64,000 bases of DNA from a phage, in the NCBI GenBank assembly GCA_036253035.1, contig GCA_036253035.1_4123.1. One strand, 5' to 3'. How positions within the stretch are numbered: the first letter of the stretch is position 1; every line of letters begins with the position of its first letter. Shown in pieces: positions 16,938 through 35,851 of this stretch. The notes beneath the pieces were generated by a model. The model was given only the letters and a program-made list of their open reading frames with translations. It had not been told where the DNA came from and made no database searches. The position numbers and the translations under genes were made by a program.

Positions 16938-17302
16938 TGAACATCACCCCAACGGAAACCTTTCATATAATTCAAATTCACCTCAACGAGTTCATGTGTT
17001 TTTGTACACCAAATGGAGAGAGTTTTTGTAACATCACCAGGTTCAGATTCATAATTCACACAATAACCTTCAATGCGTAGAGTTTTGTTAGTCCAATGTT
17101 CCCACTCAATCCAAATTTCATTTGGATAATAAACCATATCTTCTTTGAACGTATGGAATTGATCCATTGGTAAATGACCTTTAACTTCAATTACTTCAGC
17201 ACTTCGAGCCAGTTTTTCAAGCTTGTACTTTATTTCAGCAAGATATTCTTCATCATTCAGACGAGTGAATAAATCTGTTGCACGGGTTGTATCAAGGCTC
17301 AT
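16934..17302 (-). CDS. hypothetical protein
   Basis: minus ORF 122 aa. Confidence 0.55.
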   Translation of the reverse strand: MSLDTTRATDLFTRLNDEEYLAEIKYKLEKLARSAEVIEVKGHLPMDQFHTFKEDMVYYPNEIWIEWEHWTNKTLRIEGYCVNYESEPGDVTKTLSIWCTKTHELVEVNLNYMKGFRWGDVQ

Positions 17303-18643: not shown

Positions 18644-18818
18644 TGATCACATCAAGTACTTTATCCAGCTTTTTACCAATGCTTTCCTTTGGTTTCTCAC
18701 CATTCTGGAATACATTAGAACTGCAATAGTCAGGACGTGTATTAGGAAACTTCTCCTGCATCCAACTATGACCATACACACCCAGCATAATACCAACAAT
18801 AAGAATGATAATTTGCAT
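18636..18818 (-). CDS. small membrane protein
   Basis: 60 aa; N-terminal TM helix. Confidence 0.45.
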   Translation of the reverse strand: MQIIILIVGIMLGVYGHSWMQEKFPNTRPDYCSSNVFQNGEKPKESIGKKLDKVLDVINE

Positions 18819-18895
18819 GATAAACCTCTTAATTAATGTTTTATTTTAGAACTCAATATAGAAAGTATACTCTAGTACTTCTTATATGTCAACTA

Positions 18896-19105
18896 TTATT
18901 CTTTCTCACCAACAAACAGTTTAACTTTTGTATTACTGTTATAACACCACATCTGTTCTTTGTTAATAGACATCCAGATATTTTTATTGACCTGTTCGTA
19001 GGTACTATCACGAACAGAAATACATTGATTCATGGAATTCATTGGAGTGATTTGTACACCGCTTTGCATGGAAAGAGCTACTACTAAAAAGATTACTGAA
19101 TTCAT
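18896..19105 (-). CDS. small secreted protein
   Basis: 69 aa; signal-peptide-like N-terminus. Confidence 0.5.
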   Translation of the reverse strand: MNSVIFLVVALSMQSGVQITPMNSMNQCISVRDSTYEQVNKNIWMSINKEQMWCYNSNTKVKLFVGEKE

Positions 19106-19693
19106 TGGATATTCCTTAATGGTTAATCATCCATCTCTTCGAGATGTCTGTTCGCTTCTAATACTACGTATTCTACGCGAATGATCAATAACTGTCAAGG
19201 ACTTTTAATATTGACGGGATTTGAGGAAGGGATTTTTCTTCCCCCCACAAGGAGGGAAATTTGACGCTGATGGTATCAGAGCTATTGCATTGAAGATTAC
19301 TCATAACGAGTGCGAAAGCGGGTCATCCTGTTTCTCTCTACTTCAGTTTCATATGACGGTCTACACTTTTAAACATAGTGTATCTTCATTAAGTATCTAT
19401 GCAATCAAATACTTAATGTGAGTACTCAAATTTTGGACGCAACTTTCCTGTACAAAATTCGATAACTCTCCCTTAGATAATTCGTAAGGTGTTATCCTTA
19501 TATGTCTATCAAGGAACCACCAGCTATCCTAACGTGGTTCTTTATACAGCCGCATTGCCGTGAGGGGTTCAAACTATGCCCACATCTAACGGGTTTCTTT
19601 TGCTGTTCGCACTGTCGGACTGCTCAACTGCCCTCTACGTTTTCGAGTGGATCAGGTACATGAATATCATGCCAACAGAATTGTACAAGATAA
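19106..19693 (-). ncRNA. candidate structured non-coding RNA (unclassified)
   Basis: about 590 bp with no credible ORF in a tightly packed genome, locally GC-richer, multiple stem-loops, extended -10 promoter upstream and terminator of sigma gene further upstream. Confidence 0.3.
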
Positions 19694-19704
19694 TTATATC
19701 ACAA
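19694..19704 (-). promoter_or_regulatory. extended -10 promoter element (TGTGATATAAT)
   Basis: same 11-mer recurs at 39745 and 63615 upstream of genes. Confidence 0.4.
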
Positions 19705-19723
19705 ACTTTTACTTCATCCCATA

Positions 19724-19755
19724 AAAAAAGGTTGGCATAAGCCAACCTTTTTTCT
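19724..19755. terminator. bidirectional rho-independent terminator
   Basis: aaaaaaaGGTTGGCataaGCCAACCtttttt. Confidence 0.8.
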
Positions 19756-20721
19756 TTAGAAATCTTCGTATTCGTACCCTTTTGCAAGTACTAGCTTCTT
19801 AAGCTTTTGCATAGCTTCACTGTACTTTCGATGTATTGATGAACGGGATTTAACATATTTTCCATTATCATCAACAAAACCATTATCAGCAATCTCACGA
19901 AGCGTTTCAGGTTCATATTCACCTAGACCATGAACACGATGGATAATCTCACGTTCTTTAGTACTCAATTCGTTAGTCAGTTCATTGATAGCATAACGTA
20001 AAGGTGCACGAATACTATCAACATTGAGGTTAAAATCAGAAGCAGGTGAATGAATAATGTCACCTAGTGTACCATCGGTAACACCGTCTAATGGTGCATC
20101 CAGAGAAGTGTATTCGCTTTGAAATAACAAACAGTTATTAACATGCTGAATCTCAATCCCAGTACCCTCTGAGATTATTTCAGGAGTTGGGCGAACACCA
20201 TGTTTACGCATATATTCCTGGCAGAATCTTTTTACTTTGATCTTATGAACACTCATATAACGTGGGAAGTGTACCATATAGTTAGCGTCAGAACTTTCGT
20301 TATAAACTGTCATGTAAATACTAGAAGAAGCATAGGTAATGAACTTAACATTCTTATTAAGATCAAAGGTTTTTAGTGCTCTCATGAACCCCTCAACACC
20401 ATATGAAATCTTATCTTCAAATGGGATATAACAAGTACATTTACTTGCTACATCAATAATAAGTCCATAATTGTAACGAACTAACAGTTCAGTGTTTTTC
20501 TTTACATTGATACCAGCTTGAATATCACGAATTAGATCTTCATTGGAAACATTTGGTGGTCGCTTAAGTGTAATATTATATTTGAAACTGCTTTGTACTT
20601 TACCTTCATTTTCATCTTTATCTTCAACGAAATCTAAGGCTTCTAGTGTGTTGACTTCTTCATTAGCAAAACATTCATCCAGAACTTCTTCGGCAATTGT
20701 ATTTAAATCAAGCTTTTTCAC
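19756..20721 (-). CDS. RNA polymerase sigma factor, sigma-70 family
   Basis: 321 aa, GTG start with AGGAGA RBS; region 2 EGFMRALKTFDLNKNVKFITYA and region 4-like TLREIAD..SRSSIHRKYSEAMQKLKK. Confidence 0.7.
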   Translation of the reverse strand: MKKLDLNTIAEEVLDECFANEEVNTLEALDFVEDKDENEGKVQSSFKYNITLKRPPNVSNEDLIRDIQAGINVKKNTELLVRYNYGLIIDVASKCTCYIPFEDKISYGVEGFMRALKTFDLNKNVKFITYASSSIYMTVYNESSDANYMVHFPRYMSVHKIKVKRFCQEYMRKHGVRPTPEIISEGTGIEIQHVNNCLLFQSEYTSLDAPLDGVTDGTLGDIIHSPASDFNLNVDSIRAPLRYAINELTNELSTKEREIIHRVHGLGEYEPETLREIADNGFVDDNGKYVKSRSSIHRKYSEAMQKLKKLVLAKGYEYEDF

Positions 20722-31991: not shown

Positions 31992-32081
<90 letters not shown>

Positions 32082-32093
32082 AGAAGTAAGATA

Positions 32094-32194
<101 letters not shown>

Positions 32195-32249
32195 GCCAAG
32201 TGTCGGCATAGGTGCAGCACTACAAAGTACTTCAAGCTGTTTGGCAGTC

Positions 32250-32336
<87 letters not shown>

Positions 32337-32338
32337 TA

Positions 32339-32464
<126 letters not shown>

Positions 32465-32483
32465 GCATACTCGAAGTACCTCT

Positions 32484-32589
<106 letters not shown>

Positions 32590-32633
32590 AATTGCTTTAT
32601 AAGCTACTGAATCGGGAATCACAACCTCCCCAT

Positions 32634-33151
<518 letters not shown>

Positions 33152-33172
33152 TTATACCTCTCATTGTTTATG

Positions 33173-33244
<72 letters not shown>

Positions 33245-33248
33245 TAAT

Positions 33249-33856
<608 letters not shown>

Positions 33857-33907
33857 ATAAACCTCACTATACGTAACTTACACCATATACGTCTGATTGT
33901 GGAATTC

Positions 33908-33932
33908 ATTATATCAGTACTGAACTATTTAG

Positions 33933-33936
<4 letters not shown>
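33908..33936 (-). promoter_or_regulatory. sigma-70-type promoter (TTGACT-17-TATAAT)
   Basis: plus attata(33908-33913)..agtcaa(33931-33936). Confidence 0.6.
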
Positions 33937-34345
<409 letters not shown>

Positions 34346-34355
34346 GCTTTTTTTT

Positions 34356-34517
<162 letters not shown>

Positions 34518-34521
<4 letters not shown>

Positions 34522-34678
34522 AATCGTACCAGTAGTTCAATTAAGTACATTTCATATGCTGGATCGTTGATAAGTTTATCATACAGATGTGGCTCTGAAA
34601 TGAATTCCCAATGATACTTTAGCCATCTACCGATACCCGAATATCTAAAATTAATGTCATTCATCCATTCTTCATGTG

Positions 34679-34682
<4 letters not shown>
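34518..34682 (-). CDS. MTHEEW-family mini-protein (54 aa), copy 2
   Basis: MTHEEWMNDINFRYSGIGRW..; ATGA overlap with copy 1. Confidence 0.5.
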
Positions 34683-34843
<161 letters not shown>

Positions 34844-34866
34844 GGTTTTTAACCTTTAATTAAAAT

Positions 34867-34943
34867 TGGCCGAGGTAGAGGGACTTGAACCCCCAACCTA
34901 GAGATTAGAATTCTCTTGCACTATCCAATTGTGCTATACCCCG
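34867..34943 (-). tRNA. tRNA-Arg (anticodon UCU), CCA encoded
   Basis: acceptor CGGGGTA/TACCTCG, T-arm GGGGG-TTCAAGT-CCCTC, anticodon loop AUUCUAA. Confidence 0.8.
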
Positions 34944-34947
34944 TATT

Positions 34948-35063
<116 letters not shown>

Positions 35064-35096
35064 ATGTTATGTCCCATTATATAATGAATTAATGAT

Positions 35097-35315
35097 TTAT
35101 GCAAGTGCTTTAGATACACCGACACCAATAATTCCAGTGATATCGATATGGATATTGGCAAGTTGATTACTATCATATGGGTTTGTTTCTGTAATAACCA
35201 ATGTTGTATCATTGACTAAAACCACAGTACCTTTTACACGATAACCATGTAGTAGTACTTGAACCTCATCTTCAGGTTTTAATGATTGAATAACTTCAAA
35301 TAAAGTTGTTTCCAT
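35097..35315 (-). CDS. hypothetical protein
   Basis: track ORF 35097..35423; ATG 35315 with AAGGA RBS avoids overlap. Confidence 0.45.
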   Translation of the reverse strand: METTLFEVIQSLKPEDEVQVLLHGYRVKGTVVLVNDTTLVITETNPYDSNQLANIHIDITGIIGVGVSKALA

Positions 35316-35331
35316 TTTTTGTATTCCTTGT

Positions 35332-35514
35332 TTAGTTTTGATTATTTGACTTTCTAAATGCCAGTTCGCATATAAACCAGGGTTTTCTGGTATCCAAAAC
35401 ATATGACCTGAAAAGATTTTCATCTCTTAATATATCATAATGTACCTGACGAATGCCATTCCCAAAGCAGTCATGTTCTTTATGCTGTTTGGACATCCAT
35501 TCTTCGTGTGTCAT
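35332..35514 (-). CDS. MTHEEW-family mini-protein
   Basis: MTHEEWMSKQHKEHDCFGNGIRQVHYDIL.. Confidence 0.5.
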   Translation of the reverse strand: MTHEEWMSKQHKEHDCFGNGIRQVHYDILRDENLFRSYVLDTRKPWFICELAFRKSNNQN

Positions 35515-35515
35515 T

Positions 35516-35851
<336 letters not shown>

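Follow-up and report, generated by a model that had tools for sequence, protein, structure and literature searches.

A structured-RNA gene of a new family very probably occupies most of positions 19106 to 19755, on the minus strand, of a 64,000-nucleotide stretch of phage DNA (GenBank assembly GCA_036253035.1, contig GCA_036253035.1_4123.1; hereafter, the window). The core of the predicted RNA, delimited by homology and by a test of its structure, measures about 480 nucleotides and runs from a predicted start near 19686 to an invariant tail ending in CAAAUCCCGUCAA at 19207. Compared by blastn, the 64-kilobase (kb) window was 97 to 99% identical to database records that include phages 121Q, PBECO4, G17, and ECO103 4-12-1, which identifies it as DNA of an Asteriusvirus-type jumbo phage. 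The interval lies between a gene for a sigma-70-family protein (19756 to 20721, minus strand; Pfam Sigma70 r2/r3/r4) and an open reading frame (ORF) of 69 amino acids (18896 to 19105, minus strand), the next ORF after the RNA gene. A preliminary description of the same sequence had singled out the interval as a GC-rich, noncoding island that might encode a structured RNA of no assignable family. The GC content of the interval (0.385 to 0.44) was indeed modestly higher than that of its flanks (approximately 0.27 to 0.36).

The ORFs that overlap 19106 to 19755 are short, and none has a Pfam match. We aligned 38 distinct homologs of the element with MAFFT (alignment A1). The two largest plus-strand ORFs were interrupted by in-frame stops in 36 to 37 of the 38 homologs, and length differences that are not a multiple of 3 occurred within them in about half of the homologs. 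A protein-coding reading of the interval is ruled out by these stops and frameshifts in nearly all homologs, together with the lack of a Pfam match. The element therefore has no conserved reading frame, as expected of a generic structured noncoding RNA (ncRNA) gene. The view of the preliminary description that no credible ORF is present on the coding (minus) strand was borne out, and the frameshifted pseudogene that it named as the contrary explanation finds no support, given stops in 36 to 37 of 38 homologs.

Homologs of the element are widespread among the relatives of this phage. The core (approximately 19209 to 19656) was detectable by blastn at approximately 70% identity in very distant Rak2-like jumbo phages, including members of Eneladusvirus (Serratia phage BF, the Erwinia pEa_SNUABM phages, and Yersinia phage fHe-Yen9-04) and Mimasvirus (CBB, GAP32, and Xanthomonas phage XbC2), the Salmonella 7t3/Munch group, Klebsiella phage fENko-Kae01, and others, as well as in Asteriusvirus. 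In all, 62 phage records matched the core, each at 2 to 5 places; no record of Klebsiella phage RaK2 or K64-1 was among the blastn matches. The window itself holds one copy, and neither blastn nor nhmmer detected a second. In the whole genome of a 99%-identical relative (OR844650.1), four paralogs lie on the same strand at 18.3, 128.5, 208.3, and 261.7 kb and are approximately 70 to 72% identical to one another over long matches, with shorter pieces reaching 85%. By this comparison, phages of this type carry four paralogs that diverged long ago, and the window gene is one of them. To find more distant carriers, metagenomes, IMG/VR, and bacterial genomes were searched with a degenerate pattern of 22 bases taken from the block of highest conservation; matches confirmed by nhmmer were retained, and the rest were regarded as chance (an earlier, stricter 23-base pattern had matched 121Q alone in IMG/VR). 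This search added approximately 55 copies from metagenomes, approximately 40 from IMG/VR, and four from bacterial genomes, and nhmmer matches to the core scored 160 to 475 bits at about 100 loci. The IMG/VR copies were located on contigs of 350 to 380 kb or on shorter contigs, which we took to be fragments of 350- to 380-kb genomes. In Escherichia phage UE-S1 (ON568341.1), part of the element is annotated as a bare "repeat_region" (locus L001, 1849 to 2006), so its repetition had been noticed by depositors without interpretation.

The evidence for a folded RNA comes from the pattern of substitutions among these homologs. We curated a structure model from a column-pair covariation scan of A1 and tested it by pair counting. 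The model comprises 17 helices and 84 pairs, with four pseudoknot helices among them. Standard pairs filled 96.7% of 3,104 cells, compared to 78.5% in shuffles and 37 to 42% when the partners were slid by 1 to 3 columns. Both sides had changed in 58 of the 84 pairs, and double-compensatory cells numbered 542 (140 ± 10 in shuffles, with 0 of 500 reaching 542; 42 to 84 in the slid controls), so compensatory change, as expected of a generic structured ncRNA gene, was abundant. Three of the four pseudoknots were 100% paired and one was 91.7% paired, with compensatory changes in all four. Segments that vary in length and sequence nevertheless formed hairpins in 33 to 38 of the 38 sequences. For both strands, single-sequence folding surpassed that of shuffles only weakly (z = −1.7 and −1.8); the case for the predicted structure is comparative, not thermodynamic. 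Among the checks proposed in the preliminary description were an alignment inspected for compensatory base changes and a scan with covariance models. The first thus revealed covariation, and the second, run with Rfam 15, returned no family, in agreement with its own failure to assign one.

These counts also bear on whether the interval contains an RNA gene at all. It might instead be the remains of a protein-coding gene or a series of DNA sites recognized by a binding protein, an explanation we consider extremely improbable. Short motifs do recur: AUC(N)(N)CGUC occurs three times along the RNA, and several TTGAC-like words lie on the plus strand. Some annotators have also called small ORFs across the element, and up to five small hypothetical proteins appear in some records. 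Stops and frameshifts in nearly all homologs and the absence of Pfam matches speak against a former protein gene, and neither the 542 double-compensatory cells nor the strand-specific G-U pairs described below are expected of sites in duplex DNA. The explanation fails the tests made here.

Two lines of evidence, conserved G-U pairs and a conserved promoter, identify the minus strand as the RNA strand. Read in the minus sense, four covarying helices gave G-U to A-C ratios of 21:0, 67:0, 25:0, and 26:0, and several pairs were conserved as G-U (UG:33, UG:27, GU:27, and UG:25). RNAalifold, run on both strands, returned similar energies and equal G-U counts in the shared helices and by itself left the strand unsettled; the decision came from the helix-by-helix covariation scan and the promoter. 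The structured RNA of the preliminary description thus holds for the minus strand, backed by compensatory changes across the 17 helices.

The promoter of the RNA gene (19693 to 19721, minus strand) consists of a −35-like TGGGAT (19721 to 19716), a 17-nucleotide spacer, and the extended −10 element TGATATAAT (19701 to 19693), which the preliminary description had recognized. From its position, transcription is predicted to start near 19686. The arrangement TG(A/G)(A/G)AC, 17-nucleotide spacer, TGnTATAAT opens nearly every homolog at the same position, bacterial copies included, and also heads a copy whose neighbors run on the opposite strand. On the strength of this conserved motif, we infer that the RNA gene is transcribed. 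The window promoter is an exact match to TGNTATAAT. The window contains 32 occurrences of this motif where 9 are expected (3.5-fold), and 25 of the 32 lie on the minus strand, which carries every credible gene in the 5-kb stretch examined. This excess, mostly on the coding strand, marks the motif as a general promoter type of the region. A related class is described in the CBB genome paper, in which TGAAACG replaces the −35 box, mainly upstream of DNA-synthesis genes (PMC5259590).

Just upstream of the promoter, an A-run, a GC hairpin, and a T-run (AAAAAAAGGTTGGCATAAGCCAACCTTTTTT, 19724 to 19755, no strand assigned) look like a bidirectional intrinsic terminator that would close the sigma-factor transcript. 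The preliminary description had called this feature a bidirectional terminator. Its parts are evident in the sequence, and its Rfam matches were weak and only to terminator-like 3′ ends of small RNAs (sRNAs); a simple terminator scan did not flag it, a miss that probably reflects lengthening of the stem by the A- and T-runs. In one paralog lineage (copy 2 of OR844650.1, locus L008, approximately 17040 to 17080; also loci L075, L082, L083, and L089), a hairpin and U-run directly follow the −10 box, at the extreme 5′ end of the predicted RNA. These are terminator-like; they could bring about attenuation, protect the 5′ end, or terminate transcription of the opposite strand. Elsewhere in the window, a minus-strand cluster of seven tRNA genes (Thr, Asn, Met, Ser twice, Arg, and Gly; 32002 to 35829) includes several with TGATATAAT nearby, at 33908 to 33916 and 35048 to 35056.

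The 5′ half of the predicted fold, given here in window coordinates on the minus strand, begins with helix P1 (19678 to 19672 with 19618 to 19612; region 19612 to 19678), in which seven of eight pairs had changed on both sides (96.9% paired). P1 encloses P2, a variable hairpin that folds as such in 37 of 38 sequences, and P3, a bulged hairpin (19655 to 19645 with 19635 to 19628; five of eight pairs, 87.1% paired). Pseudoknot 1 is a stem of 3 base pairs (bp) (19623 to 19621 with 19611 to 19609; region 19609 to 19623) whose loop is the 3′ strand of P1; it is 100% paired, and its middle pair is UA in 15 sequences, AU in 13, and CG in 10. P4 follows (19606 to 19602 with 19550 to 19546; region 19546 to 19606; 100% paired, three of five pairs compensatory). 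Within it lie the nearly invariant P5 (19592 to 19589 with 19561 to 19558), which seems to be lengthened to 6 bp in the copies from Serratia and from a metagenome-assembled genome (MAG), and a small hairpin whose conserved loop is CAUAGUUUGUA. Pseudoknot 2 (AUG at 19555 to 19553 with CAU at 19504 to 19502; region 19502 to 19555) crosses P4 and spans P7. It is 100% paired, and two of its three pairs had changed on both sides (UA:36/CG:2 and GC:24/AU:14). All six pairs of the P7 hairpin (19540 to 19535 with 19519 to 19514) are compensatory, as are three of the four of the P8 hairpin (UAAG/CUUA, 19485 to 19500). On the 3′ side of P8 is a near-invariant single-stranded segment, UAAGGGAG. We also considered CCUUA/UAAGG/CCUUA alternative pairing as a switch and rejected it, because copies whose P8 is UGAG/CUCA are unable to pair in this way.

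The middle of the RNA is the variable domain P9 (19420 to 19472, minus strand), an AAUUUUG/CAAAAUU hairpin with a 17-nucleotide loop (UACAGGAAAGUUGCGUC); a hairpin forms here in 38 of 38 sequences. The AAUUUUG/CAAAAUU module, with the loop UACAAUAUAGAUCCGUC or a variant of it, resides at the P9 site, in the P15 loop, or in both, depending on the copy (A1 columns 436 to 470 and 604 to 636). The 3′ pseudoknotted domain (19284 to 19418, minus strand) contains P10a/b, P11, P13 to P15, and pseudoknots 3 and 4. In the P10a/b hairpin (19418 to 19387), all five P10a pairs are compensatory. Its loop supplies one strand of pseudoknot 3 (AUUGCAU at 19405 to 19399 with AUGCAAU at 19290 to 19284; five of seven pairs compensatory), which thereby joins a hairpin loop to a strand 150 nucleotides downstream. 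P11 (19383 to 19380 with 19365 to 19361) is followed by pseudoknot 4 (GUCAU at 19357 to 19353 with AUGAC at 19326 to 19322; 100% paired, three of five pairs compensatory), which is written GUUGC/GCAAC in the family model and crosses P13 and P14. The latter two (P13, 19345 to 19341 with 19295 to 19291; P14, 19338 to 19334 with 19318 to 19314) are each 100% paired with four of five pairs compensatory, and P15 is short (19311 to 19309 with 19301 to 19299). The last segment of the core (19207 to 19283, minus strand) contains P16, with a conserved AUCA(N)CGUCA and a hairpin fold in 36 of 38 sequences, then a C-run/G-run hairpin (helix 17), and finally the tail. Helix 17 contains an invariant GGGGGG, and its sole change is C to U opposite G, consistent with G-U pairs in the RNA sense. 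Pairing of the 3′ tail or the 5′ leader with the remainder of the RNA was sought, and none was found. The two hairpins that the preliminary description had placed near 19226 and 19311 fall outside the conserved helices; their bases belong to a 3′ segment specific to the window copy and to pseudoknot strands.

The 3′ end of the transcript is less clearly marked than its start. Neither reading of the sequence nor a scan revealed an intrinsic terminator (a GC-rich hairpin with a U-run) between 19686 and 19106 in the window copy. Many other copies carry a terminator-like hairpin and U-run inside conserved sequence, approximately 60 nucleotides before the invariant tail (A1 columns approximately 690 to 716; e.g., loci L005, L007, L016, L049, and L115), and the true 3′ end may differ between copies. 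Such an arrangement recalls the expression platforms of riboswitches, and the absence of a terminator before the next ORF in the window is likewise what would be seen if the element were a long structured 5′ leader that controls downstream genes by attenuation or processing. In several copies, moreover, the last hairpin lies 15 to 30 nucleotides before a Shine-Dalgarno sequence and start codon. We nonetheless judge such a leader improbable. The downstream ORFs examined vary among copies, and the four copies of the Escherichia coli phage have different neighbors; the copy beside the baseplate-hub gene has no co-oriented downstream gene; and at least 0.7 kb separates the element from the next co-oriented ORF in both the E. 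coli and the Serratia locus. In the window, a strong sigma-70-type promoter-like site (TTGACA-17-TAGAAT, 19170 to 19198, minus strand; 11 of 12 matches in a promoter scan) separates the RNA core from the next ORF.

That promoter-like site overlaps the first of two C-GNA-G triloop hairpins that follow the core on the minus strand (AAUAC-GUA-GUAUU, 19172 to 19160; CAUCUC-GAA-GAGAUG, 19146 to 19132). Similar hairpins accompany the family as a module with a stem of 4 to 7 bp, a C-G closing pair, and a GAA, GUA, or GGA triloop. A C-GNA-G hairpin was found within 170 nucleotides of 51 of 68 distinct copies, against 0.008 expected, and on the RNA-like strand, GNA-triloop hairpins were enriched approximately 90-fold just downstream of the cores. 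In a 352-kb relative genome, there are seven C-GNA-G hairpins with at least 5 bp, and five of these lie 45 to 90 nucleotides 3′ of the four RNA cores. The first 30 nucleotides after the tail averaged 75 to 78% A+T in a genome of approximately 65% A+T. Minihairpins of the d(C-GNA-G) type, such as GCGAAGC, are found in phage origins and in the promoters of phage N4, and the downstream module resembles them. The hairpin could act here either as RNA or as single-stranded DNA. No gene for an N4-type RNA polymerase was noticed in the part of the window examined, although no search was aimed at one.

Comparison with known RNA families yielded no counterpart. At gathering thresholds, Rfam 15 found six tRNAs in the whole window and nothing else; at E ≤ 10, the region from 18800 to 20000 gave only chance or terminator-like matches, and five distant homologs gave no match overlapping the element. 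Transfer-messenger RNA (tmRNA), which is found in bacteria and phages, is comparable in size and likewise has several pseudoknots, but the jumbo-phage RNA has no Rfam match and no tRNA-like ends were seen in it. ARAGORN found seven tRNAs and no tmRNA in the window. An 11-mer on the plus strand, GACGGGAUUUG, is one we take to be shared with the 5′ region of E. coli tmRNA, and it lies on the strand excluded by the G-U evidence. Group I and group II introns were rejected for want of a match at E ≤ 10 to RF00028, RF00029, or the D1-D4 models, and because the copies examined are intergenic with their own promoter and have no flanking exons. A stretch that resembles a hammerhead (CAGAUGAG-stem-CGAAG) reads GUUGAG in the window copy, failing at positions that are essential in hammerheads, and no Rfam hammerhead model matched.

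Closer in general character are ROOL and GOLLD, noncoding RNAs of several hundred nucleotides with many helices and pseudoknots, often borne by phages or prophages of hosts that are mostly Firmicutes. Their covariance models were unmatched even at E ≤ 10. The jumbo-phage RNA differs from them in its multiple copies per genome, its GNA-hairpin module, and its carriers, which are phages of Enterobacterales and Xanthomonas. Self-assembly has been demonstrated for ROOL and GOLLD. The biochemical function of both families is unknown (PMC12286853). In the related Pseudomonas jumbo phage PA5oct, RNA-seq defined ORF-free transcripts of approximately 240 to 620 nucleotides (ncRNA001 to ncRNA004), two of them abundant from early infection (PMC7318152). 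These are alike in being ORF-free, but no conserved structure or paralogy is described for them in that paper, and nhmmer with filters off detected no similarity of the element to ncRNA002 or ncRNA004. Full-text searches of the literature turned up no earlier account of such an RNA. Because neither Rfam nor the literature searched contains a counterpart, we rated the family a new class.

We then considered the genomic setting of the copies. Neighboring genes differ from copy to copy. One paralog, situated between the genes for the baseplate hub and endonuclease VII and antisense to both, occupies this position in both the E. coli phage and Salmonella phage 7t3, which argues that it is an old, independent transcription unit. 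In some genomes, genes for HNH homing endonucleases lie immediately beside two different copies (121Q gp170, locus L002, 191 to 979; OR844650.1, locus L005, 30961 to 31932), and none does so in the window; this suggests that the RNA loci attract homing elements. Bacterial DNA, too, contains single copies that are full length and include the promoter. In E. coli LR-29-1 (NZ_AP027515.1), the copy resides in an island next to ffs (locus L115, 2999 to 12898) together with a split integrase, an IS3 element, a small resolvase, and a three-gene candidate defense system (DuOB, DUF488, and mSLOG-DUF4326; PADLOC PDC-M45); the RNA locus is unannotated in RefSeq. In Serratia sp. 2723, the copy adjoins a large serine recombinase, and in an Enterobacteriaceae MAG, it adjoins a CI-like repressor. 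About 1 kb of AT-rich, ORF-free DNA follows the RNA gene in Serratia sp. 2723, beside the recombinase (locus L106, 5920 to 6970). The chromosome of Serratia sp. L9 carries a 5′-truncated copy between an Hcp/DUF4225 pair (type VI secretion) and a RimO/MiaB-like radical SAM gene (locus L105, 3511 to 3875), probably the remnant of a lost mobile element. No protein neighbor was common to the island copies and the phage: only the mSLOG-DUF4326 protein of LR-29-1 has a homolog in the jumbo phage (41% identical, at approximately 221.3 to 221.6 kb), far from any RNA copy.

The element is multicopy and is carried by mobile elements of unrelated kinds (integrative islands and a prophage-like locus as well as jumbo phages). 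It might therefore be a mobile RNA itself, selfish or the relic of one, either intron-like without an ORF or derived from a retroelement, that has spread among phages and islands. The homing-endonuclease genes beside copies in 121Q and OR844650.1 and the internal hairpin module at alternative positions would also fit such an origin. Yet the paralogs within a genome are only approximately 70% identical, and at least one copy has kept the same neighbors in two phage groups, which points to old duplications and not to recent transposition. No flanking split gene was seen, the intron models found no match, and each copy has its own promoter. A mobile RNA of this kind is accordingly unlikely in our estimation.

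A cis-acting function in DNA replication, the strongest rival of the reading that we favor, merits more weight, though we entertain it only tentatively. The element may be an origin module whose folded promoter transcript would form an R-loop near its G-rich 3′ part and prime the leading strand. It could conceivably work as T4 oriF and oriG or ColE1 RNA II do, with the C-GNA-G hairpins on the displaced DNA strand as signals for loading or priming. The common ground with those systems is a noncoding transcript from a dedicated promoter, and ColE1 RNA II is itself a folded primer of approximately 550 nucleotides. The invariant GGGGGG near the 3′ end and the enrichment of GNA-triloop hairpins just downstream on the RNA-like strand suit this model. 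So does copy number, which tracks replicon size, with 2 to 5 dispersed same-strand copies per 350-kb phage and one per bacterial locus. One copy adjoins the baseplate-hub gene, and T4 oriE presumably lies near gene 5. The −35-like box of the family resembles the TGAAACG class of DNA-synthesis genes (PMC5259590). T4, a distant relative, primes replication from R-loops of promoter transcripts: it has about five origin loci per genome (at least five origins), at those studied the promoter transcript is the R-loop primer, the promoter combines a sigma-70-like −10 with a phage-specific upstream box, and oriF and oriG each consist of a middle promoter and a downstream unwinding element (PMC3016281). 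However, T4 origins share no common local sequence motif, and about 100 bp suffices (PMC3016281), whereas the jumbo-phage family has a conserved fold of 480 nucleotides. Four covarying pseudoknots and invariant linkers far exceed the known needs of a primer RNA. Of four copies, only one lies close to a switch in strand or in GC skew (a change in skew sign within 8 kb), although location at shifts in compositional bias is true of only some T4 origins (PMC3016281). In addition, the intact E. coli copy lies in a decayed island (split integrase and IS3) with no replication gene recognized nearby, and RaK2 and K64-1 are missing from the blastn matches.

The reading we favor is that of a trans-acting RNA that engages host components, given its four pseudoknots, its many invariant junction bases, and the lack of a conserved neighbor; on action in trans rather than in cis, we consider the balance about level. 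RNA polymerase would start at the extended −10 element TGATATAAT (19701 to 19693), after the terminator of the sigma-factor gene, and produce a transcript of approximately 480 nucleotides, or approximately 555 if the two 3′ GNA-triloop hairpins are included. The transcript would fold into at least 17 helices with four pseudoknots and near-invariant linkers between them. A predicted length of approximately 0.5 kb and four pseudoknots set it apart from typical base-pairing sRNAs. Instead of regulating by antisense, it would serve as a scaffold, bind protein, or work in the manner of a ribozyme. Since its carriers have no neighboring protein gene in common, its target would be something that the enterobacterial host supplies.

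Several points weigh against this reading. One and the same MAFFT alignment, which is not structure-aware, served both to derive the structure and to test it; for this reason, P15, P16, and the C/G hairpin, whose register could not be fixed on that alignment and which rest on per-sequence folding, are less certain. The 3′ end is undefined, as the window copy lacks a terminator and many copies have a hairpin approximately 60 nucleotides before the tail. The distribution of copies, one per small element versus 2 to 5 dispersed in 350-kb phages, fits a cis element such as an origin. The exceptional stability of C-GNA-G triloop hairpins is a property of DNA rather than RNA. Finally, a literature search found no RNA-seq or other expression data for this phage group.

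Few large RNAs have many pseudoknots and invariant junction bases, and the well-understood cases (RNase P, self-splicing introns, and tmRNA) perform sophisticated chemistry or recognition. The present family could, as a speculative prospect, prove to be a new class of large functional RNA, whether a ribozyme or a self-assembling machine, or else the first replication origin with an elaborately folded, pseudoknotted RNA primer. Pseudoknot 3 covaries, and its pairing could in principle be intra- or intermolecular; in a self-assembling RNA, the clade-specific pairing of its loop might be intermolecular. The four paralogs would then be kept for distinct specificities or, alternatively, as four origins. 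The RNA has been kept across several genera of 350-kb phages in 2 to 5 diverged copies, with full copies in E. coli and Serratia islands, and is an unannotated, probably abundant product of phages isolated on pathogenic E. coli, Salmonella, and plant-pathogenic Erwinia, Pectobacterium, and Xanthomonas. The literature examined contains no account of how DNA replication is initiated in Rak2-like phages, and the element is a testable candidate for this role. For genome annotation, the family gives an identity to loci that are now left blank or assigned spurious small ORFs.

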